64,000 nt of DNA from Treponemataceae bacterium. Its GTDB lineage: Bacteria; Spirochaetota; Spirochaetia; Treponematales; Rectinemataceae. Below the pieces are notes generated by a model. The model had not been told where the DNA came from, did not search any database, and saw only the letters and a program-made list of their open reading frames with translations. The translations under genes and the position numbers were made by a program. The DNA is taken from NCBI GenBank assembly GCA_963677895.2, contig CAXXGJ010000018.1, positions 480,001 through 544,000 on the forward strand, read 5' to 3'. Shown here piece after piece: positions 38,680 through 53,024 of the stretch (position 1 is the first letter of the stretch; the number at the start of each line of letters is the position of its first letter).

Positions 38680-39420
38680 TTAGCTTTCCCTCATGGCATC
38701 GAGAATGGACAACATTTCCAGCGCGTCATTTTCCGCCATGCTCAGCGCGGTGATATATCGGTCGGCGGCGCAAACGATATCCTCGTCCTCATTGGGCGTA
38801 TCGATCGCTTTCCTTACATTCGTATCGCCTCTGTCCAGGCGATTCAACATTCTAAGTATGGACATCATGGAATAGTGAGCGTTTCGAAGCGTTCGGATGA
38901 TTTTCAGCCTATTCATTTCCATCAATCCGAATTTCCTGCGTCCGTTTGCGCTTCGCGGCACCCGGATCAAGCCGTTTCTTTCCCAATCGCGCAAAACATC
39001 GATAGTGATGCCGAGAATGTCCGCCGCCATGAGTCTGCCGCTGAACATTACCGCTTTATCCGATTTTTCGTTTTTTTCAACGATGCTTAAGGCGATAAGG
39101 ATTGCCTCTTCCGCTCTGGCCCTCTCTTCTCTCAGATGCTCCAAATACTTCCTTGTGCCTCGATATGCCGCGTCGATATCGTTCGCTGCCGCGGTCTTCA
39201 CGATGTCATAGACTTCCTGCCTGAGCCTGTCCCCGATTATCTCCGCGTGAAAAGCCCTGCGCAGCAGCCTAAGCTGCCTAAGATGGGCGTCGCTGAAAAT
39301 TCGGTATCCGCTTTCCGTTCTGGGTATCGAGGGAAGCAGTTTCATCGATTCGTAAAACCTTATGGTATTGGGATGAACTCCGATAAGCTTCGCTATCTGG
39401 GAGGTTTTATAGGTGCTCAC
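38680..39420 (-). CDS. MerR-family regulator with two MerR HTH domains
   Basis: IAKLIGVHPNTIRFYE...RTESGYRIF and AADILGITIDVLRDWERNGLI...NGRRKF. Confidence 0.88.
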   Translation of the reverse strand: MSTYKTSQIAKLIGVHPNTIRFYESMKLLPSIPRTESGYRIFSDAHLRQLRLLRRAFHAEIIGDRLRQEVYDIVKTAAANDIDAAYRGTRKYLEHLREERARAEEAILIALSIVEKNEKSDKAVMFSGRLMAADILGITIDVLRDWERNGLIRVPRSANGRRKFGLMEMNRLKIIRTLRNAHYSMMSILRMLNRLDRGDTNVRKAIDTPNEDEDIVCAADRYITALSMAENDALEMLSILDAMRES

Positions 39421-39483
39421 GGAACCGCCTCCTCTTTTTTTATTGTTTTTTCTGGATTCGGTCTACAAAATTTTCTGCTAATA

Positions 39484-39534
39484 AAAAAGAGAAGGGCAAT
39501 TCCTTTTATTATAAGGAATTGCCCTTCTCTTTTT
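39484..39534. terminator. Long hairpin next to the left att copy
   Basis: AAAAAGAGAAGGGCAATTCCTT...AAGGAATTGCCCTTCTCTTTTT. Confidence 0.75.
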
Positions 39535-39545
39535 AGCCCCTAGGG
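39530..39545 (-). repeat. att direct repeat (duplicated tRNA-Glu 3' end)
   Basis: 16-bp identity with 51848-51863. Confidence 0.8.
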
Positions 39546-40019
39546 CTACAAAACAGCTTGTATTTGATCATTTTACCCAATCTTTTATTAGGTTTTTCCT
39601 CATTGGGTATGGGCCTGAAATGGTACTTTACCCGAGTAAACACATACGGGTATGTGTTTACTATCTCCCTGCAGGGAAGTTTTGCTGGCAGGAAGAATTC
39701 AATCACATATTAGCTTTTTTCAATATTCAAGATGGCGCATATAAAATACACTGAGCAAACTCAGAATAGACAATATAACCAAATGTGGCTTCAGCTTTTA
39801 AGGGAACGGCAATGTCTATTACGCTTGGTCTCGAACTGAGTTTTGGAAAAAGCGGAAAAAAGTATTCTATGAAAACTATATTCTATAATGACTTAACACT
39901 TACATATCGTGGCAGGGTTTTTGCTCCTTACCCAGTTTTGTGCACAGTAGTGAAGCTATTTTTCTATCTTTACTACACGCGTTAAGTTAAGGACAATAAT
40001 TTTATATTTTTAAAATACT

Positions 40020-40047
40020 TTGACAAACTGCATGACGGCAGTATGTT
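40020..40047 (+). promoter_or_regulatory. Candidate sigma70 promoter of rhs
   Basis: TTGACA-N16-TATGTT, about 120 bp upstream of AAGGAG/ATG. Confidence 0.45.
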
Positions 40048-40167
40048 AGGAATAGAATTTAAGAATAAATAGGAAGCTATGTTTCAGAGTTTTATGAGTA
40101 ACTCAATCAAGTATTAACCGCAAGACATGATTCAAAAGCAATAAAATAATCACAAAAGGAGCATTGT

Positions 40168-43100
40168 ATGAAAAAAGGACTGGGATTAATAGCGGCGGTA
40201 ACGCCGATCGTAAACGACGATGGAATGCTAAGTGGTGTGCCCAATGCTCGGGGGAATCTTGTCATAGACAAGAAGGGCGATGTGCAATACATGCCACTCG
40301 AGGCGGGAGTCCACAATATAGGATTTGGAGAACGAGGGCATCTTGCCTTCGATACGGCAAAGGTCTTAACGGCAAGGGTGGCGACATCGAAGTTGTGGGC
40401 GACTGAAGCAGCAAGAAAGTCGGTCTTCGGCGCCTCGATCGAGGTGACGGAGCGTATAGTGAACCAGGTGAGCTTTCCTACGGGACAGCAGGGATTCGAG
40501 GCGCGGGGGAAAGCGTATCACTTCGAACCCGAAGGGCTCATCTTCGAGAGTTCCGCGACACTGACACTTCCCTATGAAAGCATTGAAGGAAAAGACGACT
40601 CATGGATCAACATCTACTACTACGACAAAGAACTTTTAATGTGGGAAGTTATACCGAAGTTGTCACAGAATAGGGAGAATAAGACGATTACGGTGGAAAT
40701 CAGTCATTTCAGTGATTACGTGGCTGGTTTGTCGTCATTTCGGATCGACGAGGGAGGAAGTATTAACGGAGGAAGACAACTGGGGTATAGCGTGGATCCA
40801 TACTATGGAACGCTAATAATAAAGAGCGGGGAAGTATCGGTACAAGCTCGGGGTGTGAACCTCGAGCTTCAAGCGATGTTTAATTCTGACTATCTTTATA
40901 CAAAGTACCTTCCGACGTTTACAGGCAGTGAAACAACAGCGGGACAGAGTCTGGTACAAACCCCCAACATGAAGTATCCGTTTCTGGGGGTGGACATAAG
41001 TTCCGGCTGGTCATATGAGCTTCCTTCCTGCCAGTTTAGTGTGAATAACATGCTTACGCTGATACTCCCGGACGGGAAGAAGTACGACTTATCGCAAGCG
41101 TTGATCTGGTGGGTAGGGAAGAGTGCAGGAAGCAGCACGACAACAACACTAGCGTCGTGCCAGATCGAAAAGCCGACGGTAAATAGTATACGAATTTTGA
41201 TTCCCGAGATAGGGTATGGGATTGAGGCTTCAGTGGAGGATACCTCCTCCTATTTCATAGTTCGGTGGAACACTCTGGCAAAAGCATCGAATGTACGGAT
41301 CTATCCAGCAGACGGAAAGAAGATAATGTTTATGGCCGACGGATCGGGGAACATACAATATCTTTATGACGCAAGCGGAAAGAATTGGTTGCACTATGTG
41401 TACTCCGGGACCAAACTGCAGGCGGTAGAACACAACGACGGACGGGCGATAAAGATCTATTCGTACATGAACTCAAACAACACAAAGTCCCTCGTCTATG
41501 TCCTGTCGAGCTCGACGAACATGACAACCTTGAATGCAGAAGATCAGTTTCTCTCCCGGCGGGTGTTCGATAGCTCTGGGAGGCTTCAATACGCAGACAA
41601 GCTTGGAACGCTGTCGGGATTTTCTGCAAGCACGAGCTGGGAAGGGGTGACTGCATCGAACGAATCGATATATTTTATGGTGCTGCAGCGGACGGGCTAC
41701 AGCTACACCATGCATTCGGCGGTGGCTGGGAACACTCTTCAGGTGACAGAGCCTGGAGGTGGGTACAAGGTGTATACGTTCACGGTTTCGTTCTTTCCAG
41801 GGGGCGTCTCAACAAAAACAGCAGAACGAATTGTCGGTCAAGGAGAGGAGTCTGATACGGTCATTGATTATACCTATCTTTATCATAATAAACCAAAAGT
41901 AATGAACTATAAAGTTGCTAGGAACATCAATGAGATTCAGTCGCTAGCAGAGGTCCTCAGATACAATTATGCGAGTTCGTGTGGACGGACTTCATTTAGT
42001 ACAAACTCGTACCAGACGCAAGAGGGATCATATCCAACCCTGTGGAACACGATGCCTGCGATGACGGTGCGGGAGCAGTCGGAGTTCAATGGAGCTACTA
42101 TCTCGCAGGTGACTGAGGAAGTGCTGACCTATTCGCATACGGGAAGCACAACCGATACATATAGAGGGCTGGGTGAAGATGTAACATACTACTACGTATC
42201 CGGCACCAAGACCTTCCACGACAAGATGACACGGACCTTCACAGATGTAATATACAATGCATACTACCCATCGGTTGAAAGTTATTACGTGGGAGACTCA
42301 GCGAGCGCGAAATGGACGGTATCGTATGTCTATGACAGCTACGGCAGGAAGGTGAAGGTTACCGATAGTAGAGCGGGAAGAATGTACTATCGGTATCTGT
42401 ATGGAGGACAGAACACCGACTCAGTGTTTTCAGACAATCCCTACACCGATCCGACTGATCGGCTTTTATACACAAGCTTCGGGGTTGTACGGGGGGAGGC
42501 CGCCGAACAGAGTATCGGGGTGTATGCGAAGACGTACTTCCAATACGACAGTCTCCTGAACGCGACGACGAAACGAGTATACGACACGAGATCAGGGGCA
42601 GCAGTGACGCTAGATACAGGGTACACTTACGATGGGACGACGAATGTACTAACGGGAATCACGTACCCTTTAGGGAATGTACTGGCCTTGAGCTACGGAA
42701 CAGGGTGGAAGGGTTCATACATTATTAAGGACTCTCGGACCATGGATAATGTAACGAAGTTAGTGAACGAATTCGATTATGATTTTAGGGGCCGGAGGAC
42801 AAGCGCGACACCGAAGCTTGAGAATGGCGCGGGAAATGCGATTGTAGATGCTTCGGCACCGATCACGACGACAAGATATGTATATGATGGGCTTAGTAGG
42901 GTGACATCGAAAACGAGAATGGTAGGTGGGGAAACGACAGAGTTGTACCGGAGGGTTTACAACGATACGAATCTGACGGTGACGACTACGGATGCAAAGG
43001 GATACAGGACTTTTGCGATATATGACATATTCTTCAGGAAAATAGTAGAGGAGAGTTTTCGTCCGAACACGGAGAATCAAGGTGTGAGCTATGATGGAGT

Positions 43101-45606
43101 AGGGCAGGTGTCGGTGGGTAAGCTGAGTTGGAACTACAATTGGGTGTACCGGGATAGGGTAATAACTGACTGGGTACGAGGCTCTCCAACTGGGCCGGAG
43201 TATTACAGGATCGAAAACGGGTATGACTATCTGGGACGGCTGACAAAGGTCTCTCGTGGAGACCAGAGCGGCGTCTTGTACCAGATAAAGACGTTTAGCT
43301 ACACGGATACGGCGAATACGGTTGTGGAGAAGAACTATCGTGATATGACAAACTACACACAGACCATGACGGTGAAAGATTGGCTTGATCGGGTGACGTC
43401 GGTTACCCAGTACGCTGGTATAGGAGGAACGGGGACAACGTCGGTGACGAGCATGGGCTACAACTACGCGGGACAGGTGACGAGTAGAACGTTGGCAAAC
43501 GGGGAAACGTACACCTATGGCTACTCGCGGTCGGGACTGCTTGAGAGCATGGTGTATCCCCAGGGCAGAGGGACAGAAACCTACACGTACGATTACAACG
43601 GGCGTCTGACGACGAAGACAGACGTTGGTGGCAACACGACGACCTATGAGTACAATTTAGCCGACCTTGAGACACAGCGGAAGTCAACCGCAACCGCAAC
43701 AGAAAAGGAGTGGGTGTGGGTGGTGGCTACCTATTCACAGTACGGGCCGAAAGAAGTGACTAAGTATTCTGGTCTTGTAGGAGAACTCCATGATGAGTAC
43801 TCGTATGCGTATAACTCAGGTGCGCTAACGACGACCGAGACGAGATGGATTGGTGGAACAGGTATGTCGGGTATGTCGTCGGTGTCGCATGGGTATGATG
43901 TAGCGGGGAACTTACGGACGCTGTCGGTGACGGGGTTTGACGGGAGCTTTTCGAAAACGCTCAACTACTCGCTGCCCTACTTTGGGGGAGACGGGAGCTC
44001 CAGTGATCGATCGATGAAGGTATCCACAGGGAGCACGGCGCTAGGGACGATCTCGACGAACTATGCAGGGACGAGGAATACCACGACCTATGGCTCTGGA
44101 CTTACTACTGCCTATACGAATTATGATGTGTTTATGCGTCCATGGCTTATTGACAATCCGGGGAGTGAGTACGATCAGAGTTACGTCTATGACTGGCAGG
44201 GGAACACAACGAGCTGGAACGGGACGAGCTACGCGTACGATGGGATGAACCGGCTTACGACGGGTGGATACAACTACGACATCATAGGGAACCAGAGTGC
44301 GGCGCCGGGAAGCGTAAGCTACTCATATGTGGCGAACTCAGGACAACCCACGATGCGCCTTGACTACAAGACGGTGAGCGGAGTGACGACGGACTATACG
44401 GACGATGAGAACCTCGCGAACCTTGTGTCGGTGGCGGGGAAGTATACCAACCTCGCTTATGATCCGACCAACCGGCTTATCTCGCTGTATGATGTGATCC
44501 GGGGAGTAACGGACAGCTATCGGTACGGGCCTGAAGGGTTGCGGTATAAGGAAACCGAAGGAGCGATGAGTGGGAGCTCTAAGACGACCTACTACCTGTA
44601 TGAGGGGAACGATATCCTGTACGAGGAAGGGTACGAAGGAAGCACGAAGACCTTCTCGAAGCTAAATATATATGTAGGAGGAGTCAACATCGGGAGGATC
44701 AGAAAGGTAGGGAGTACGGAGAGTGTTCAGTACTTCTACAATGACCTCCTTGGTTCACGGCGTGCGGTGACGGACAGTACGGGTGTGGTGCAGGCGAAGA
44801 TCGACTACAGCGTATGGGGAGTGCCTACGGTAACGAACTACAACGGGTACGACGGAAGCCTCGATGTGTCGTACACGGGGAAGGAGCGGGATGCGATGGG
44901 GTTGTACTACTTCAATGCGAGGTATTATGACCCGAGTATTGGAAGGTTCATCACAGAGGACCCAGCTAGGAATGACATGAATTGGTTCGTATATTGCGGA
45001 AACAATCCATTATCTTTCATAGATCCCTCGGGGTTACTGAATGAACATACTTTAGTGATGCAAGAAAATATGCGTTACCGTTACGATGTAGCAAAAAAGG
45101 AAGCCGAAGATACAACATTAAAACAGCAAAATGACAAGATAGCCTATCAAGAATGGGAGAAAGATGTAACCGACAAATGCAAGGATGCATACGATGCCTT
45201 TAATAAAGGCGATGAAGCAACCGCGAATTCGCTACTGATCCACGCGAGTAATGTGACTTCGTGGAATAACAGGCAATCGACTGCTACAGGGGCGTCGTTT
45301 GGAGATGTAGTTAAAAGTTGGTGGCAAAAAAGCAACGGCGCACCCTTAACTCCGCAAGAAGCTAATATTCAAAAGGTAGTGGGAGTATCGGAAATGGGTA
45401 TTGGCGGAGCTGGAATGATAGTAACTGTTGTTCCAACACACGGGATTGGAATATTTGGTTCATTATATGTAATGGCCGATGGAGGTTATTTGCTATCGCA
45501 AGGCATGAATAACATAAAAGCGAATCCAGGCTCCATGTATATCGTCTTGGCTAATCCTATTGTTTCAGCCGTCAATAGCTTTACATTTGCTGTTCCATTC
45601 CCATAA
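40168..45606 (+). CDS. rhs: Rhs/YD-repeat polymorphic toxin, 1812 aa
   Basis: Many YD repeats (YDSYGR, YDGLSR, YDYLGR, YDYNGR); core YTGKERDAMGLYYFNARYYDPSIGRFITEDP...YCGNNPLSFIDPSG; about 190-aa C-terminal extension. Confidence 0.93.
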   Translation: MKKGLGLIAAVTPIVNDDGMLSGVPNARGNLVIDKKGDVQYMPLEAGVHNIGFGERGHLAFDTAKVLTARVATSKLWATEAARKSVFGASIEVTERIVNQVSFPTGQQGFEARGKAYHFEPEGLIFESSATLTLPYESIEGKDDSWINIYYYDKELLMWEVIPKLSQNRENKTITVEISHFSDYVAGLSSFRIDEGGSINGGRQLGYSVDPYYGTLIIKSGEVSVQARGVNLELQAMFNSDYLYTKYLPTFTGSETTAGQSLVQTPNMKYPFLGVDISSGWSYELPSCQFSVNNMLTLILPDGKKYDLSQALIWWVGKSAGSSTTTTLASCQIEKPTVNSIRILIPEIGYGIEASVEDTSSYFIVRWNTLAKASNVRIYPADGKKIMFMADGSGNIQYLYDASGKNWLHYVYSGTKLQAVEHNDGRAIKIYSYMNSNNTKSLVYVLSSSTNMTTLNAEDQFLSRRVFDSSGRLQYADKLGTLSGFSASTSWEGVTASNESIYFMVLQRTGYSYTMHSAVAGNTLQVTEPGGGYKVYTFTVSFFPGGVSTKTAERIVGQGEESDTVIDYTYLYHNKPKVMNYKVARNINEIQSLAEVLRYNYASSCGRTSFSTNSYQTQEGSYPTLWNTMPAMTVREQSEFNGATISQVTEEVLTYSHTGSTTDTYRGLGEDVTYYYVSGTKTFHDKMTRTFTDVIYNAYYPSVESYYVGDSASAKWTVSYVYDSYGRKVKVTDSRAGRMYYRYLYGGQNTDSVFSDNPYTDPTDRLLYTSFGVVRGEAAEQSIGVYAKTYFQYDSLLNATTKRVYDTRSGAAVTLDTGYTYDGTTNVLTGITYPLGNVLALSYGTGWKGSYIIKDSRTMDNVTKLVNEFDYDFRGRRTSATPKLENGAGNAIVDASAPITTTRYVYDGLSRVTSKTRMVGGETTELYRRVYNDTNLTVTTTDAKGYRTFAIYDIFFRKIVEESFRPNTENQGVSYDGVGQVSVGKLSWNYNWVYRDRVITDWVRGSPTGPEYYRIENGYDYLGRLTKVSRGDQSGVLYQIKTFSYTDTANTVVEKNYRDMTNYTQTMTVKDWLDRVTSVTQYAGIGGTGTTSVTSMGYNYAGQVTSRTLANGETYTYGYSRSGLLESMVYPQGRGTETYTYDYNGRLTTKTDVGGNTTTYEYNLADLETQRKSTATATEKEWVWVVATYSQYGPKEVTKYSGLVGELHDEYSYAYNSGALTTTETRWIGGTGMSGMSSVSHGYDVAGNLRTLSVTGFDGSFSKTLNYSLPYFGGDGSSSDRSMKVSTGSTALGTISTNYAGTRNTTTYGSGLTTAYTNYDVFMRPWLIDNPGSEYDQSYVYDWQGNTTSWNGTSYAYDGMNRLTTGGYNYDIIGNQSAAPGSVSYSYVANSGQPTMRLDYKTVSGVTTDYTDDENLANLVSVAGKYTNLAYDPTNRLISLYDVIRGVTDSYRYGPEGLRYKETEGAMSGSSKTTYYLYEGNDILYEEGYEGSTKTFSKLNIYVGGVNIGRIRKVGSTESVQYFYNDLLGSRRAVTDSTGVVQAKIDYSVWGVPTVTNYNGYDGSLDVSYTGKERDAMGLYYFNARYYDPSIGRFITEDPARNDMNWFVYCGNNPLSFIDPSGLLNEHTLVMQENMRYRYDVAKKEAEDTTLKQQNDKIAYQEWEKDVTDKCKDAYDAFNKGDEATANSLLIHASNVTSWNNRQSTATGASFGDVVKSWWQKSNGAPLTPQEANIQKVVGVSEMGIGGAGMIVTVVPTHGIGIFGSLYVMADGGYLLSQGMNNIKANPGSMYIVLANPIVSAVNSFTFAVPFP

Positions 45607-45621
45607 TATTGGAGAGTAGTC

Positions 45622-45843
45622 ATGGACTATATTGGTTTGTTGCTTATTATACTTTTTTCGCTATTTATTGATGCTATATCAGTCAAAAATATAATGATCG
45701 GTAAGGGCAAGGTGGTTCATTCTGACTTACTGTTGGAGCGGAAACAAAAGGCTATTTATAAAAGAGGAATAGTTGGCCTAGTACTTTCGCTTGTTTGCGG
45801 TGCATTTTTAAGCTATATATTCATTATTATATTATTAAAATAA
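45622..45843 (+). CDS. Small 2-TM protein, candidate cognate immunity protein
   Basis: Starts 15 bp after the rhs stop, has a GGAG RBS, two hydrophobic helices, AT-rich. Confidence 0.7.
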   Translation: MDYIGLLLIILFSLFIDAISVKNIMIGKGKVVHSDLLLERKQKAIYKRGIVGLVLSLVCGAFLSYIFIIILLK

Positions 45844-45914
45844 TTAGGTCAATCGAATATTTTGCTGACCTAACCAGTATTAAAGAGTGGCGAATCTTGG
45901 TATCAGTCACTTTT

Positions 45915-45975
45915 GTCTAACGCGGCTTCAACCTGACGCCACCTTTGGCGGCGCAGGTTAAGCGAAAGGTTAGGC
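45915..45975 (+). other. Integron attC site (apparently intact)
   Basis: R'' GTCTAAC, L'' TTCAACCTG (extra C), stem CGCC...GGCG, L' CAGGTTAA, R' GTTAGGC; 61 bp. Confidence 0.8.
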
Positions 45976-46036
45976 TAAGCCAATGAAATATAGCGGCCGC
46001 TTTGGTACTCACCAGGGCGGCCGTTCTATTGTCGAG

Positions 46037-46118
46037 CCAATAAAAGATCCCGGTTAACCTGCGAGCGTCGTGTTCCAAAGGAACAGACGCGAGTTAGGTT
46101 GAACCGTTTTTTTTATTG
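46037..46118 (-). other. Degenerate attC-like site in opposite orientation
   Basis: Minus strand CAATAAA...CGGTTCAACCTAACTCGCGTC...GACGCTCGCAGGTTAACCG...TTTATTG. Confidence 0.55.
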
Positions 46119-46229
46119 CTCGAAGAGTTCTGCCACACCAATGAAGAGCTGCCACGGGGGCTGTGCCACCTTGGCTTACTGAAGAAGGCTACGAGAATCC
46201 CGGCGCTTTTTAGCTATAAAGTGAAAGGT

Positions 46230-46604
46230 AATCTCATTCATCACTCGGAACGTGGTTCTCAATATCTATCTATTCGCTACAGTGAACGCTTGACTGAAGC
46301 AGGCATTGAAGCGTCGGTCAGCAGCGTGGGTGATGGCTACAACAATGCTCTGGCGGAAACGATCAATGGCCTTTTTAAGACGGAGGTTATTCATCGTAGC
46401 GTTGCGGACCATGGAGAGGATTGGACGCTGTGGAATACGCTACACTCGAATGGGGTCGACTGGTTCAACAACCGAAGGCTGCTCGAACCAATCGGTAATA
46501 TTCCACCAGCGGAGTTCGAAGAATTATATTATACTGAACAAGAAGTCTTGGCTTAAGGAGCCGGACTCACATAATCAGGACTCCGATAAACCCTGGGCGG
46601 TTCA
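46230..46604 (+). mobile_element. IS3-family (IS51/IS629-like) remnant: transposase C-terminus and right inverted repeat
   Basis: LIHHSERGSQYLSIRY, NNALAETINGLFKTE, DWFNNRRLLEPIGNIPPAEFE; ends ...AAACCCTGGGCGGTTCA. Confidence 0.88.
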
Positions 46605-46732
46605 GGTGGGCCAGAGAACGATATTAACAATCCTGGGATCATTGAATTTATAGAGGTAGTCCTCCTAAAACAGGTGAACTACGGCAATATAATTGGAATG
46701 CCCTCAATATATGGCAATAGTGAGGAGAAAAA

Positions 46733-47221
46733 ATGCGACGTACTTTTTTCGTAGTACTTTTTTGTGCCCTATTTTGTTTTCCAGCGATGTCTCAAAGCTC
46801 TACAACATTGCTCAATATATTTTTTGGGGGGAATGGATATACAGATGAAAAAATGGGAATCACCACAAAAGACGGAATGGAACTTTATCTTGCCCGCCAA
46901 ATCGAAAGTGTGAATACCACAAACTCAAAGAAAGTATTAGTATATGGCAGTTCTCAAAATGGTATCAGGATTTTTCTTCAAATACTGGGGCCAATGATTG
47001 TCGATAGCTCAGGAAGGGTGATCGCAGATGTTTCATCTATTCCAGGTGCTTTTTGGGCATGGCGAATTGAACTGTTGCGAAAAAGTCACAGCACGGATGT
47101 TGGTTTATCTATAGATTGTATATCAAATTCTGGCAAAAGCATTACCGATTATCCGAGCATTGTTTGGGATGAAACGAAAAATGCTTTTTACCTCGATACT
47201 GTTGATCGCAGTCAGTTTTAA
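46733..47221 (+). CDS. Hypothetical exported protein
   Basis: GAGGAG RBS; Sec-type signal peptide MRRTFFVVLFCALFCFPAMS. Confidence 0.7.
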   Translation: MRRTFFVVLFCALFCFPAMSQSSTTLLNIFFGGNGYTDEKMGITTKDGMELYLARQIESVNTTNSKKVLVYGSSQNGIRIFLQILGPMIVDSSGRVIADVSSIPGAFWAWRIELLRKSHSTDVGLSIDCISNSGKSITDYPSIVWDETKNAFYLDTVDRSQF

Positions 47222-47289
47222 AATAGTTCAGATCCAATATGAACGAAGCATATGTAGTGCTGTAAAGTTCAAGCTGTATGCCTATTCAA

Positions 47290-47510
47290 GGCGAGGTAAT
47301 GATACCTCAAAGACGTTTGATCGCATTCAGATGACTAAAAGCATGACCTCAGATTATACAACCAAAATGGAAATTTATCGTTTTGATGATGTTTTCGATG
47401 TTAAAGCGTTTGATGGTCCTCCAACTCGGAGGGGGACTGCTAACGCTTTGAGTGATCATTGCTCAGTTTGGGTAGACTTATATATCGACAGAGATAATGA
47501 TACCGAGTAA
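47290..47510 (+). pseudogene. C-terminal fragment of an endonuclease/exonuclease/phosphatase (DNase I-like) gene
   Basis: TFDRI...LSDHCSVW resembles the EEP YDRI/SDHxPV motifs; N-terminal two-thirds absent. Confidence 0.6.
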
Positions 47511-47989
47511 GCACCCTATATGCAAAACTTGGAAATAATTATTCGGTATACAATTCTATCTTGTTTTGATGAAAGGCTTATCTTTCATGCAGAGTCTAGC
47601 AACATAGAGCGATCAAGAAATTCCTCTGTCATTATGATTAGGCGAGCTATATGTGAAAGGCGAATCATGTCTTGTGCATTCTGGAACGCATTCTATGCTA
47701 CACTCCAGAAGTTGATGTTATTCTCGATTATACAACATACCAGAAATCTTTTTTCTATTCTTGGCAATGCTTGGATTACAATCTGTTTGTTTGGAAATTG
47801 AAGCTTATTCGAGATTTTTTACCGTGACCCCCTTACCCCCTGAATCCGTAGAGTGGGAGTCAGCCGAAACGCTGCGGTTTACACTAAATAGCCATAGAGA
47901 TTGCACCCCCCCTCCCCATGGGTAAGAAGCTGCAGGAGGCGCCAGTCGACGCGAATGCATCGGCTTCAATCTGCTGTGGTCCGTGTCCT

Positions 47990-48172
47990 TCAGGTCGATA
48001 TTGTTGGAGTATGCACGACGATCCTGTCTTTCCTGGCCATAACGCGCTTCTTCACAGTGGTCACGGCGATCGAGATGAAGCTCCCATCATGAATCTGTAT
48101 CTCCTGCTTGCCGAATCCTCGCTTTCGAGCGACTACTCTTAGTTCCTCGATACCCTCGTATTCCGGGGGGAT
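47990..48172 (-). pseudogene. Diverged paralog of the small ORF at 51072-51251; start codon is ATC
   Basis: IPPEYEGIEELRVVARKRGFGKQEIQIHDGSFISIAVTTVKKRVMARKDRIVVHTPTIST*; same upstream GATTGAGGTACAGC. Confidence 0.6.
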
Positions 48173-48399
48173 CGCTGTACCTCAATCAATGTATGCGTAA
48201 TAGTTCGCCGGCAGAGACAACCGTCTCATTATGCCCAGATTCTGCAAGAAATTCAGAAATTTTCGAGCATTTCTGGCCTATTCGTCTTCAGAAAGGTTTT
48301 GTTTTTTGAAGGGAATTCCTGTTGGGTACTAAGCCAATGTCATGCTGACACTTCGCACCAAGAAAAGATTAATTGAATGTGGTGTAAAATCTGTGAAAA

Positions 48400-48480
48400 T
48401 GGTACATAAATCGATTACATGTACCAAAAATAAAAGATATGGTACAAATCCTTGACAAGTGTACCAAATAGATCAATACT
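48400..48480 (+). promoter_or_regulatory. fic promoter with four 20-bp-phased TGGTACA/TGTACCA half-sites
   Basis: Half-sites start at 48400, 48420, 48440 and 48460; TTGACA(48452)-N17-AATACT. Confidence 0.75.
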
Positions 48481-48487
48481 GGGATAT

Positions 48488-49570
48488 ATGAAGTCCTTTG
48501 ATCCCAGTAAACCGTATGATGCCCTTCCTCTTTTACCTCCCGATCGCTCTAGAGTTGAGACTATTGCAGTATTGCGCCAGGAAAATAAGGCTATAGCTGC
48601 ATTAGCAGAGTTAAAGGGTTTAGCTAATATTATACCTAATCAGTCGATACTGATAAATGCGATTGTGCTTCAAGAAGCTAAAGATAGTTCAGAAATAGAA
48701 AACATCATTACGACAAAGGATGAATTGTATAAAGCTATTTCTTCAACTACAAAAAAGTATGATCCAGCAACAAAAGAAGTAATGTTTTATAGGGAAGCAT
48801 TATATGAAGGATTTAAGAAAATAAAAGAAAGAGATCTTTTATCCATGAATGATATTATTATTTTACAGGGAATACTGGTACAAAATAATGCTGGCATAAG
48901 GAAGTTACCTGGTACTACATTAGCCAATGATAAGACAGGCGAGATTATCTATACGCCTCCTCAGAGTGAAGAAGCTATCAATTCGTTGACGGCCAACTTG
49001 GTTAAGTATCTTAATGATGGTGAAGTAACCTTAATAAAGATGGCAATTTTGCATTACCAGTTTGAATCGATACATCCTTTTTATGATGGAAATGGAAGAA
49101 CAGGACGGATAGTAAATATACTATATTTACTATTAAAGCAATATTTAGATATACCAATACTTTACCTAAGTTCATATATAATAAAAAATAAGGAATTATA
49201 TTACAAACTTTTGCTTGGTGTCACTAAAGATGAGAAATGGGAAGACTGGATTATTTATATATTAAAAGGAGTTGAAGAAACTTCCAGAGAGACTATTGTC
49301 AAAATAAAGCAAATAAAGAATCTATTAGATAGAACGATAGAGAGAGTAAAAGAACAAGCTCCCAAAATATATTCTAAAGAGCTTGTTGAGACATTATTTG
49401 TAAATCCGTATTGTAAAGTCGAGTTTATAACCAGTTCGATTGGCGTAGAGCGAAAAGCAGCTTCAAGATACCTACATCAGTTAGTAGAAGTTGGAATACT
49501 CGAAGAATATAAGGTTGGAAAAGAAAATATTTTTATTAATAAGGATTTACTGGAAATCCTGAAAAAGTAA
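48488..49570 (+). CDS. fic: Fic-family protein (class II, C-terminal wHTH)
   Basis: HPFYDGNGRTGR catalytic motif, SSEIEN inhibitory motif, RKAASRYLHQLVEVGIL HTH. Confidence 0.92.
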   Translation: MKSFDPSKPYDALPLLPPDRSRVETIAVLRQENKAIAALAELKGLANIIPNQSILINAIVLQEAKDSSEIENIITTKDELYKAISSTTKKYDPATKEVMFYREALYEGFKKIKERDLLSMNDIIILQGILVQNNAGIRKLPGTTLANDKTGEIIYTPPQSEEAINSLTANLVKYLNDGEVTLIKMAILHYQFESIHPFYDGNGRTGRIVNILYLLLKQYLDIPILYLSSYIIKNKELYYKLLLGVTKDEKWEDWIIYILKGVEETSRETIVKIKQIKNLLDRTIERVKEQAPKIYSKELVETLFVNPYCKVEFITSSIGVERKAASRYLHQLVEVGILEEYKVGKENIFINKDLLEILKK

Positions 49571-49573
49571 AAA

Positions 49574-49687
49574 ACATGACACACGCTTCAACCTTATAAT
49601 GCTCTTTGTCACGCATCTTGCGGGAAGAGTTCACAAGAAGCGCGCCAATCCCTCGCTTCGCTCGGGAGCGAGTGGTAAAGGTTATGC
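49574..49687 (+). other. Degenerate attC site after fic
   Basis: ACATGAC-ACACGC-TTCAACCT begins 3 bp after the stop; ends AAAG-GTTATGC; L' eroded. Confidence 0.6.
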
Positions 49688-49892
49688 CAACGATAGACCG
49701 ATAGCCGCCTTAAAAAACAGAAAGATTGAAATAACCTCTCCAATATTCAATCAAAATCGAGAAAGCACGATGTTTCTCATATAGCTGTCAATTTTTAAAA
49801 TTATTTTAAAATAGGTCTTGCAAAGCATTTTTAATCAATATATCCCTTGCTTTAAGGATATCCCCTACATCTTAACAAAGGAAGTTGATTGT

Positions 49893-50870
49893 ATGAATCA
49901 GGAAAAAATCAAAGAGCTTGAAAAGACGATAAACAGTGACTACAGCAATATTGCTGGCATTATTGTTCAAAAATGCGGCGTAAAATTATTTGAAAACTAC
50001 TTTAATGGATATACCGCCGATAAGGCCGTTCATATGTATTCGGTGACTAAAAGCGTTATTTCCGCGTTGATCGGTATCGCCATCGATAAAGGTTATATAA
50101 AAAGCGTAGACCAAAAGGTATTGGACTTTTTTCCCGATTACGTTGTCGTAACAGGTGAAAAAACAATACAGCACGTTACGGTCAAAAATCTTCTTACCAT
50201 GACGGCCCCCTATAAATATAAGACGGAACCATACGTGGAGTTTTTCGCAAGCCAGACCCCGATTCTAGATGCACTCAATTTATTGGGCGGGGATGGAGTC
50301 ATCGGGGAATTTAATTATTCTGCCATCGGAGGAACCCATATTTTGTCAGGTATCCTTGTGAGGTCGACGGGACAGTCCATACTTGATTTCGCTACGAAAA
50401 ACTTATTTTCTCCACTGGGAATCAACGTTACACACAATCTGGTGTTGCGTAGTAAAGAAGAACATTTTGCCGTTATGAATGATAAAAACACAAGTGGCTG
50501 GGTTGTTGACCCACAAGGAATAAACACGGCTAGCTGGGGCCTTTTTTTAACGCCTGCGGATATGACAAAAATTGGTCAATTGTACTTAAATGATGGAACG
50601 TGGGGTGGTAACCAAATTATACCGACCGCGTGGATAAATGAGAGTACAAGAGAACATAGCCGATGCGTCCAATGGGGCAATCTAGCTTATGGCTATCTTT
50701 GGTGGATCATTGACGGGGATAGCTATGCGGCTCTGGGCGATGGCGGTAATGTTATCTATGTCAATTCAAAGAAAGAAATTATTGTTTCCATCGCTTCGCT
50801 TTTCTTGCCAGAGGCCAAGGATAGAATAGAGTTTATTAAAAAATATATCGAACCAGTTTTTAAGGATTGA
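49893..50870 (+). CDS. Serine hydrolase, beta-lactamase/NylB-like family
   Basis: SVTK (SxxK), LLTMT, FNYS, DMTKIGQLYL, YGYLWW, ALGDGGN; no signal peptide. Confidence 0.88.
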   Translation: MNQEKIKELEKTINSDYSNIAGIIVQKCGVKLFENYFNGYTADKAVHMYSVTKSVISALIGIAIDKGYIKSVDQKVLDFFPDYVVVTGEKTIQHVTVKNLLTMTAPYKYKTEPYVEFFASQTPILDALNLLGGDGVIGEFNYSAIGGTHILSGILVRSTGQSILDFATKNLFSPLGINVTHNLVLRSKEEHFAVMNDKNTSGWVVDPQGINTASWGLFLTPADMTKIGQLYLNDGTWGGNQIIPTAWINESTREHSRCVQWGNLAYGYLWWIIDGDSYAALGDGGNVIYVNSKKEIIVSIASLFLPEAKDRIEFIKKYIEPVFKD

Positions 50871-50963
50871 GAATAACGAATCCTTATTTACCGGGGAGAT
50901 TGAAAGTATTATACGAAGCAGGCGAGTTTAAATTTCATTATTGGTTTGTAGAAGTGTATTGAT

Positions 50964-51077
50964 TTTCAGCGGGTAGATTCAACCTGACTCGGCTATTGTC
51001 ACAGTTTGTGCTTTTGGGTTATGCCCAGCACAAACTGTGCCAATGTACGCCTCACAGGTTAAGCGAATATGCTATGC
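50964..51077 (+). other. Degenerate attC site after the serine hydrolase
   Basis: TTCAACCTGACTC...CACAGTTTGTGCT/AGCACAAACTGTG stem...CTCACAGGTTAAGCG...GCTATGC. Confidence 0.65.
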
Positions 51078-51251
51078 TTTCAATAGCGTATGCACTACAA
51101 TTCGATTCTTCTTGGGTACTGGTTTCTTCTTTACGGTTGTCACCGTCATCGAGATGATGGCTCCTTCATGAATCTGAACCTCCACCTTGTCGAATTCCAC
51201 GTTTGCGAGCGCCTTCCTCAGCTCTTCGATATCTTCGTATTCCAGGGGCAT
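51072..51251 (-). CDS. Small 59-aa protein, YezD/DUF2292-like (missed by the ORF track)
   Basis: MPLEYEDIEELRKALANVEFDKVEVQIHEGAIISMTVTTVKKKPVPKKNRIVVHTLLKA*; GAGG RBS. Confidence 0.65.
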   Translation of the reverse strand: MPLEYEDIEELRKALANVEFDKVEVQIHEGAIISMTVTTVKKKPVPKKNRIVVHTLLKA

Positions 51252-51275
51252 TGCTGTACCTCAATCGATGTATGA

Positions 51276-51758
51276 CTATGCGTTCGCCGGTAGTGACACC
51301 CACTTGGCCATGCTCAGTTTCTGCATGAATCCGGCCAGTTTCTTCGAGTTTTCAGCACGTTCTTCCTCGGAAATCTCAGGTTGATTGAAGGAGATTCCCG
51401 AGCTCCAGCGTTCCGGAATACTTCGCTCCTGGGAGGGCGATGACTGCATGAGCGAGAGTATCTCCTGGATGTTCTTCGCGAAGCTCGAGAAGGCGAAAGA
51501 CCACTGGCGTTTCTCCAGAGGCGTCTCTTTTGGCATTCGCTTGTAGGCGAACCAGAGATCCCGCCAGTTGTCGAAGTAGTAGTCGACGGCGCGCAGTCCA
51601 AGCTTGATGTCTTTCCCGAGGACTTCGAAGAGTTCCTTCGCCGCAAGGTTTGCCCGTTCGTCCGGAAGGATGGTAAGGCTCGTGATCTTGTTGAATTTCT
51701 GAAACCAATAGCCGACGATCTGGAATTGCGGGAGCTCATATTCTGAGGCTTTGGGCAA
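51276..51758 (-). CDS. Hypothetical phage/ICE-like protein, possibly 5'-truncated
   Basis: Open 160-codon frame, co-oriented with the small ORF and next to att; function not recognised. Confidence 0.55.
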   Translation of the reverse strand: MPKASEYELPQFQIVGYWFQKFNKITSLTILPDERANLAAKELFEVLGKDIKLGLRAVDYYFDNWRDLWFAYKRMPKETPLEKRQWSFAFSSFAKNIQEILSLMQSSPSQERSIPERWSSGISFNQPEISEEERAENSKKLAGFMQKLSMAKWVSLPANA

Positions 51759-51797
51759 ATATTTGTCAATATAAACACATACTTTTTCACATACCCT

Positions 51798-51852
51798 AAA
51801 AAAAGAGGCTGGTAAATCCTTATAATAAAAGGATTTACCAGCCTCTTTTTTT
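51798..51852 (-). terminator. Terminator after tRNA-Glu
   Basis: AAAAAAAGAGGCTGGTAAATCCTT...AAGGATTTACCAGCCTCTTTTTTT. Confidence 0.8.
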
Positions 51853-51923
51853 AGCCCCTAGGGGAGTCGAACCCCTCTTTAAAGATTGAGAATCTTTTGT
51901 CCTAACCGATAGACGAAGGGGCC
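51852..51923 (-). tRNA. tRNA-Glu (CUC), CCA not encoded
   Basis: GGCCCCTTCGTCTATCGGTTAGGAC-AAAAGATT-CTC-AATCTTT-AAAGAGGGGTTCGACTCCCCTAGGGGCTA folds as a cloverleaf. Confidence 0.95.
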
Positions 51924-52025
51924 TCGTGAAAGAAATGGCTCTCTGTTCGAGAGCCATTTCTTTCACAAGCGAGATTTTCGCCCGCGGCTCAAATCTCGCA
52001 TCGCATCCGATCGGTAAAACCCGAG

Positions 52026-52096
52026 TTCCCCAGGGAGGATTTGAACCCCCACAAGCAGATCCAGAGTCTGCCGTGCTACCATTACACAACCGGGGA
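52026..52096 (-). tRNA. tRNA-Gln (CUG), CCA not encoded
   Basis: TCCCCGGTTGTGTAATGGTAGCAC-GGCAGACT-CTG-GATCTGC-TTGTGGGGGTTCAAATCCTCCCTGGGGAA. Confidence 0.95.
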
Positions 52097-52114
52097 ATGA
52101 CGTCAACGGCAGAT

Positions 52115-52143
52115 AAAATAGCGCAGCTGGCGCCCTTAGTCAA
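52115..52143 (-). promoter_or_regulatory. tRNA operon promoter
   Basis: TTGACT-N17-TATTTT on the minus strand. Confidence 0.6.
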
Positions 52144-52189
52144 TACCTCGGGAAGTTCAAAAAATAATCGTGCTGGTGAAAAATCTTCA

Positions 52190-52249
52190 TTGACAAGTCG
52201 CCATAAGGGATTTATTCTTAAAGAGAAAAAGATATGCACAAATGTGCAT
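52190..52249 (+). promoter_or_regulatory. Sugar-operon promoter and palindromic operator
   Basis: TTGACA-N17-TATTCT; ATGCACA-AA-TGTGCAT at 52234-52249. Confidence 0.7.
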
Positions 52250-52295
52250 TATGAATCGACAGGAATCCCAGTTTAGCCCTGGAGAGGAGAGAAGG

Positions 52296-53024
52296 ATGAC
52301 AGGTGGAATCGCGCGCGGAACGGAGCGACTTTTCGACGACAAGGGGCATCTCTTTCTTCTCGCCCTCGACCACGCGCAGAGCGGCGTGATGCCGGGGCTG
52401 GAAAACTCTGGCGGACTCATGACGAAACTAGCCTCTTCCGCCCTGGATGGCTTCATCCTCAACATAGGCATGAGCGGGCGGATGGCCGCGCCGCCTTTCC
52501 TCAGGAAGAAACTCGTGCTGCGCACATCCTTCGGAGGATCCATGCTCGCGAGCGATTACTCGACCGTGCACGCCAACCACGTGAGTCCGGAAACCGCACT
52601 CTCCGTCGGCGCCGACGCCGTCCTCATGATGGCGGTGATAGGCGGCACGGATTACAAGAGCCTTCAGAAGGTTGCCGCCGATATAGACCGGTTTCACCAG
52701 CTTTCCATTCCCGTAATCGTGGAGATCCTCGCCGCCGACTTCACCAAGACCAGCAGTTTCGATATTCAATATAATGGGGCACGCATCGCAGCCGAGCTGG
52801 GTGCCGACGTCGTGAAAGCCTTCTTCGTGGAGGGTTTCGATAAAGTGACGGCATGCTGTCCTGTGCCGGTCATCCTCGCCGGCGGACCCAAGGACCGCGA
52901 CATCGCCGCCGTGGCGGCTCAGGCGCTCTCCGAGGGAGCGAGGGGCTTCGCTTTTGGCCGCAACATCTTCCAGGCGGCAGATCCCGAAGCTGTCGTGGAA
53001 AAGCTGGGCGGACTTCTGAAATGA
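52296..53024 (+). CDS. Class I aldolase (DhnA/FbaB/LsrF family)
   Basis: LALDH, ARIAAELGADVVK (Schiff-base Lys), PVILAGG, FGRNIFQ. Confidence 0.88.
   Translation: MTGGIARGTERLFDDKGHLFLLALDHAQSGVMPGLENSGGLMTKLASSALDGFILNIGMSGRMAAPPFLRKKLVLRTSFGGSMLASDYSTVHANHVSPETALSVGADAVLMMAVIGGTDYKSLQKVAADIDRFHQLSIPVIVEILAADFTKTSSFDIQYNGARIAAELGADVVKAFFVEGFDKVTACCPVPVILAGGPKDRDIAAVAAQALSEGARGFAFGRNIFQAADPEAVVEKLGGLLK

Follow-up and report, generated by a model that had tools for sequence, protein, structure and literature searches.

Recombination sites that punctuate interbacterial defence genes are known from the rAID-1 arrays of Bacteroidales, which have their own adjacent tyrosine recombinase and collect orphan immunity genes, whereas in the locus described here the unit contains a toxin tip and no recombinase adjoins it in the island. 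The attC sites of integron cassettes, including those of the Treponema chromosomal integrons in the accessible text of PMC3607928, share with our sites the R''/L''/L'/R' layout, the bottom-strand hairpin with extrahelical G and T, the placement at a gene's stop codon, and L boxes like those of spirochaete array sites. The short sites reported here differ from them in being solitary or head-to-head, mainly non-GTT, paired between R' and their own R'', and linked to toxin tips. Single attC sites distant from intI also occur as SALINs formed by attG insertion, which according to the accessible part of bioRxiv 10.1101/2022.09.11.507474 leaves host-derived bases after G↓WT; here, in contrast, R' is conserved and covaries with R'', and the unit forms an in-frame fusion with a resident gene.

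Rhs orphan-tip displacement likewise combines a constant core, a variable tip with its immunity gene, orphan modules and core–core recombination (accessible text of PMC3967940 and PMC5361080). Homologous recombination in the Rhs core was demonstrated for Salmonella orphans (PMC3967940), and effector insertion has been likened to integrons, yet with integrase evidence stated as lacking (PMC5361080). These papers, in the portions available, invoke homologous or illegitimate recombination, whereas the loci below have a defined attC-fold site at the right-hand joint. As to the integron reaction, the available text of PMC2811028 reports that IntI1 cuts at the R' crossover point, that only the first triplet base must match between partners, and that a first-base mismatch lowers recombination 1,000- to 10,000-fold. 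Its engineered attC and attI mutants share with our sites that the first triplet base is free when partners match; GTT was common to all integrons then known, and the sites reported here look like natural A and C versions (PMC2811028, in part). In the literature outside subscription journals and supplements we found neither a description of Rhs modules followed by attC sites nor one of non-GTT attC families in nature. Non-canonical attC cores are reportedly described in papers by Ghaly. Word searches of PMC9668308, PMC9176274 and PMC8352920 gave no mention of such cores. The locus described here brings together features of integron attC sites and of Rhs tip modules.

The Rhs locus and its genomic island

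The window, i.e. the whole 64-kb stretch of DNA analysed, contains the following features in and around the Rhs locus:

39526–39545: left copy of a 20-bp direct repeat derived from the 3' end of tRNA-Glu, where a low-GC island of 12.3 kb begins
40168–45606, plus strand: full-length Rhs protein, 1812 aa, TIGR03696 at residues 1547–1623
44806–45036, plus strand: Rhs associated core within the preceding gene, DPSG at residue 1619, followed by a variable tip of ~185 aa
45622–45843, plus strand: ORF of 73 aa with two hydrophobic segments, a putative immunity protein judged solely from its position
45915–45975, plus strand: site 1, short attC-fold site (R'' 45915–45921, L'' 45926–45933, L' 45956–45962, R' 45969–45975)
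45976–46039, plus strand: downstream flank with a GC-rich terminator-like hairpin (45993–46023), homologous to the flank behind Rhs-linked sites of genome G019
46040–46116, minus strand: site 2, the inverted partner of site 1, a hairpin that folds like attC at its L boxes and has R boxes other than GTT, 38.7 bits with the covariance model
46120–46600, plus strand: broken IS3-like transposase remnant, probably of the IS3 family by a sequence motif; no Pfam match
46733–47510, plus strand: two overlapping ORFs of 162 and 116 aa
48331–48345, plus strand: right-hand remnant of an array-type attC, core G↓TCATGC with G at 48339, starting the Fic cassette
48488–49570, plus strand: SoFic-like gene in an ordinary integron cassette, common to congener G001 and independent of Rhs
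49574–49698, plus strand: site 3, attC of the long array type, its R boxes non-canonical, 77.3 bits with an HMM of the genome's own array
49893–50870, plus strand: beta-lactamase-fold serine hydrolase, PF00144, far under class C beta-lactamase cut-offs
50965–51077, plus strand: site 4, attC of the array type whose R boxes have decayed, 26.6 bits with the same array HMM
51090–51790, minus strand: broken phage-type replication gene remnant, its 3' part duplicated at 48047–48250
51844–51923, minus strand: right direct repeat (51844–51863) and tRNA-Glu(CTC) (51852–51923), the integration site of the island

The Rhs gene has the YD repeats, the associated core ending in DPxG and the variable tip by which Rhs polymorphic toxins are recognized, and a single Rhs core was found in G000, the genome to which the window (G000:C18:480001-544000) belongs. 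Close homologues align over residues 37–1623 and differ in their tips. Residues 1–36 (40168–40280) found no alignment among the homologues, whose N-termini differ; the Rhs copies of G019 have a longer, signal-like N-terminus. Homologues of the tip were absent among longer proteins, with weak atlas leads only (≤0.90), and its structure model was poor (pLDDT 48.7); Pfam and NCBIfam searches with the 73-aa ORF were without match. On the sole basis of position, we infer that tip and ORF form a putative toxin–immunity pair. The order given in an earlier sequence-only reading, namely an Rhs gene and a small membrane ORF followed after a 71-bp gap by a site at 45915–45975, was recovered in full.

The congener G001 has, at the same tRNA, a prophage-like island of ~40 kb in which positions 47825–51061 of the window are matched at 98.8% identity and four different genes stand instead of the Rhs block; the island in the window resembles a decayed version of it. 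This tRNA-Glu island (G001:C3:494900-534200; L324, L325) contains several array-type cassettes. At both ends of the window island, adjoining the direct repeats, there are near-perfect, mutually related hairpins of 52–59 bp (39483–39534, 51796–51854). An assembly chimera was ruled out by an X3 contig that covers 39400–46482 with zero differences, X3 being possibly the source sample; an X12 contig connects 39528 to 51846, and its short side of only 32 letters is too little to use. A search of genome contigs for loci related to the window gave just three distant, unrelated matches. The spirochaete sheath protein FlaA was without match in G000 or G019 and present in relatives of the same order and class, for which reason the host is treated as a presumed spirochaete.

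The attC-type sites of the window

The R'' (GTCTAAC) and R' (GTTAGGC) boxes of site 1 correspond to RYYYAAC and GTTRRRY, and its bottom strand forms a hairpin with paired L boxes and extrahelical G and T (folding z −3.67, equalled by 0 of 200 shuffles). The spacers between R and L boxes, typically 5 nt and 5–6 nt in attC sites, are 4 and 6 nt long, as in several relatives, most others having 5 and 6. The short-site detector returned site 1 as its sole match in the 64-kb window and 0 matches in 1.05 Mb of two other contigs. With a covariance model of our own, trained without it, site 1 scores 54.4 bits. We conclude that site 1 is a genuine attC-fold hairpin, with a predicted crossover at 45969/45970, and, given the recurrence of such sites in relatives described below, no chance neighbour of the Rhs pair. 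The TTAGAC core complementary to its R'' is absent across 39000–52500, which bears out the earlier remark that an upstream core delimiting a cassette was missing, and because of this absence the tip/immunity unit is not a plain cassette in the window.

All three further attC-like sites proposed downstream were detected, but site 2 lies on the opposite strand without a GTT core and site 3 ends at 49698, not at 49687. Close relatives of site 2 were found in G397, G377 and L175, and its type recurs inverted behind other tips. Sites 1, 3 and 4 are co-oriented and close together, site 2 is inverted, and intI was not found nearby. The proposal that one CALIN of four sites gathers cargo behind the toxin was abandoned: in addition to the inversion of site 2, R' of site 1 mismatches R'' of site 3, and G001 has sites 3 and 4 with their Fic/beta-lactamase-fold block but without the Rhs block. 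Since G001 has that block at the identity given above in the absence of the Rhs block, sites 3 and 4 are unrelated to Rhs. The Fic unit is a true cassette, GTCATGC at 48339 matching ACATGAC at 49574 (R'' of site 3) in 6 of 7 bases, and sites 3 and 4 are ordinary decayed cassettes.

A family of short sites behind toxin and immunity genes

Starting from Rhs cores, at least 19 of 141, in 10 of 53 related genomes, had a site of ≥25 bits inside 3 kb (81 regions, drawn from 150 of 443 class-level matches plus two additional searches); this is a lower bound, as two further sites in G229 were missed and recovered by a model-free scan. The covariance model comprised 27 Rhs-linked sites, the window site left out, and 5 of the 19 had been in this training set. 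Cores with <2 kb of downstream sequence and no match were dropped from the count, and the G258 and G180:C71 regions were included for their already-known sites. An attC behind homologous Rhs loci, which the sequence-only reading proposed to score, is recurrent but confined to a minority: 122 of the 141 cores, with regions from 150 of 443 matches, had no detected site, and the closest homologues among the matches listed, G012 and G031 (76% in the core region), lacked one. Both observations count against the exchange model developed below. In G019 a site lies behind one of two full-length Rhs genes and behind two orphan tips.

A pattern search starting from the site gave 5 matches outside G000 among 301 genomes and 16 metagenome loci, the latter including two near-duplicate pairs. 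In 4 of the 5 and 11 of the 16, respectively, the site came after a Rhs core motif or a toxin/immunity gene with a Pfam label, the labels (two of them weak) being Imm40, SMI1, Imm26, Imm8, barstar, Tox-GHH, Tox-SHH and GH-E; the remaining matches followed unlabelled gene pairs or were truncated, and none was inside an ordinary array. Viral contigs had no match to the site pattern. Of 27 new loci inspected from an order-wide model search, 20 had GTT cores and were of the ordinary cassette type, mostly in arrays, and seven were non-GTT beside tips or immunity-like genes, one (L268) unlabelled. Furthermore, 32 of 38 measurable forward sites begin ≤71 nt from the upstream stop codon. Taken as sequence comparisons, these data make an association of short attC-type sites with Rhs toxin–immunity pairs in spirochaetes highly probable. 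At L173, a single site and its downstream element lie between two convergent Rhs loci.

The family fold covaries, with 96.6% of cells paired and two-sided changes in 14 of 21 pairs (0 of 500 shuffles). Among forward sites (n=40), 36 have AAT/ATT, 3 AAC/GTT and 1 AAG/CTT, and among inverted sites (n=32) 14 have AAG/CTT and 11 AAT/ATT, shares that are inflated by the discovery route; the 8 finds from the Rhs side comprise 6 ATT and 2 GTT. The first base of the triplet varies with pairing intact in 40/40 forward sites, and AA/TT is retained in 40/40 forward and 31/32 inverted sites. Site 1 is a GTT version in a family most of whose members depart from RYYYAAC/GTTRRRY. R' pairs with its own R'' in 35 of 40 forward sites, a partly selection-biased figure: 19 of the 40 were retrieved with a pattern in which the R boxes were preset, so that both the AAT/ATT share and self-complementarity are overstated. 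Early detectors demanded G or A cores and so missed inverted C-core sites, which the covariance model recovered. In this group, almost all sites of IntI-associated arrays are GTT and have an R' that matches R'' of the next site, as do the true arrays of C39 (41/48) and G001 (7/7, 11/12 and 12/12).

Forward and inverted sites often stand head-to-head across a terminator-like hairpin, like sites 1 and 2, and inverted ones frequently end a convergent toxin–antitoxin-like, PD-(D/E)XK or YhgA-like gene. At the inverted-only loci G161, G139, G125 and G168 the site ends a convergent gene, which speaks against a simple exchange model. In G161 (L094-L096), a Rhs fragment, tip, immunity gene, inverted site and convergent PD-(D/E)XK (PF13366) gene are found at three chromosomal positions. 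G139:C1:1016000-1046000 (L235, L236) has tandem non-Rhs tip modules with a common pre-tip domain lacking a Pfam match, each closed by an AAG/CTT site in inverted orientation; genes resembling YhgA or HicAB lie between the modules. A second inverted-repeat element of ~100 bp lies in the flank behind each tip module of G019 (L038:13300-13460, L039:16773-16872), with AAT/ATT end boxes as in the short sites and different inner boxes.

Site bodies and flanks switch within R'

Pairs of sites with a common flank have unrelated bodies, and pairs with a common body have unrelated flanks. A common flank was found in 12 of 741 pairs, 9 of these 12 stemming from two genomes; identity directly past R' was 0.78 (background 0.29), and before R' the same 12 pairs were at background level in spacer (0.47 vs 0.40) and loop (0.49 vs 0.47). 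In addition, a contig from another metagenome, run X11, corresponds to window positions 45970–46021 and in the upstream direction passes into the right arm of a different, A-type site, with the junction at 45969/45970. The sequence comparisons place the apparent switch within the R' heptamer, where IntI cuts. Identical flanks occur with both G-type and A-type bodies (in G019, between the window and X11, and in L285), so that any insulation of non-GTT sites is not strict. Homologous immunity genes with different site bodies (L176 vs L186) count against the exchange model.

The absence of an integrase from the window, noted previously, extends to the whole bin, where none scored above the TIGR02249 cut-off. 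Contig C39 (G000; L041, L042) carries a 46-kb superintegron-type array of 33% GC with 47–49 co-oriented sites, its integrase end lying outside the bin. The suggestion that IntI be sought elsewhere was rewarded in both congeners, G001 (three genes) and G019, and in 9 of the 13 further genomes with sites that were checked, all above the cut-off, but not in the window's own bin. Against the exchange model, this bin, G040, G258 and G194 lack IntI, G137 has pieces only, and neither 10 regions around IntI genes nor 40 kb of C39 contain a Rhs core. Three of five genomes chosen as site-negative carry IntI too, one of which, G229, was later found with sites, and IntI presence is therefore non-discriminating. 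In G050:C1:1458000-1500000 (L282, L283, L100) an integron array stops a few kb before a same-strand Rhs orphan array, among whose tips no sites were found. In G019, L038:8556-12810 is a repeated 8.8-kb unit with two tyrosine recombinases ahead of orphan tips, one of which matches Pfam TNT.

A proposed two-joint exchange and its alternatives

We lean, with some reserve, towards site 1 being a member of a class-wide short attC-derived family that marks the 3' end of tip/immunity modules and serves as the right-hand joint for tip exchange. Tips would be swapped, at a chance we put slightly above even, by integrase-type exchange at the site together with homologous recombination in the Rhs core. 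Supplied in trans, an integron integrase would attach the incoming module (leader, core fragment, tip, immunity gene, site body) at N↓TT to the flank already in place. The Rhs core present there and that of the module would then recombine, so that the full-length gene receives the new tip and the former tip, its immunity gene and the former site leave on a circle that is itself a new cassette. The end state would be that of the window, a full Rhs gene with tip, immunity gene and a single site, the upstream core being absent. Sites with an A or C core would mostly find partners among themselves and be kept in part separate from the GTT superintegron. Site-bounded modules containing a core fragment do occur (L285, L171, G229). 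A two-joint exchange accounts for the solitary site, the absent upstream core and the reassortment of bodies and flanks; it leaves unexplained the inverted-only loci, the occurrence of one flank with G as well as A bodies, and the first acquisition of a site by a new tip. The proposed tie between tip/immunity unit and attC recombination is supported, in that the Rhs–immunity–site order recurs in relatives far more often than chance would give and bodies reassort, but not as a plain cassette in the window.

The same sites could play the same role with another enzyme, a rAID-like, non-IntI tyrosine recombinase on Rhs-island elements. The G019 orphan modules preceded by two phage-integrase-family genes, an integrase fragment in the G258 tip array, the four site-bearing genomes without an intact IntI match and the non-GTT majority of cores fit this reading, which we consider unlikely, as no such gene lies in the window island or at most site loci, and the fold retains the two extrahelical bases of the IntI type and looks like the array sites of the hosts themselves. 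If, on the other hand, the sites were fixed attC-derived hairpins acting as terminators or RNA stabilisers, tips would change by homologous or homology-facilitated illegitimate recombination, with brief motifs in common at R' giving the mosaics. That 35 of 40 forward sites are self-complementary, as though never broken, that both orientations are found, that a terminator-like hairpin comes next, and that variable sequence in G161 begins directly beyond the hairpin would all be expected; yet the extrahelical bases and unpaired spacer are conserved on one strand across families, the flank already has its own terminator-like hairpin, and a breakpoint in a 7-nt box is short for RecA, so that we judge this rather unlikely.

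Lastly, stray cassettes (SALIN or CALIN) might accumulate in Rhs-bearing islands by chance or as in any hotspot, site 1 being a relic. This accounts for sites 3 and 4, the island being a tRNA hotspot with ordinary cassettes (more of them in G001), and agrees with the majority of Rhs loci having no site, but searches starting from the site arrive behind toxin/immunity genes, with the narrow spacing to the stop codon in 32 of 38 forward sites. Moreover, attG insertion (SALIN), rejected for site 1, predicts host-derived bases past the cut, where R' covaries with its own R'' instead. For site 1 this origin, which we hold to be quite improbable, is largely refuted by the site-first, Rhs-first and X11 junction results.

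Implications

The family links two questions, that of the entry of new tips into Rhs loci and that of the origin of integron cassettes. Our data suggest that spirochaetes borrow integron-type recombination for swapping antibacterial toxin tips. The sites are short and clonable, and the prediction is that recombination depends on the integrase and on a matching first base. If true, they would be natural examples of non-GTT attC, otherwise known to us only as engineered mutants, and may be missed by GTT-trained detection. More tentatively, and with clear doubt on our part, the A/C-crossover attC may form a second, partly insulated integron channel that lets the chromosomal integrase shuffle tips and immunity genes outside the GTT superintegron, each replacement freeing a new cassette; were this so, tip replacement would be a visible route of cassette genesis.
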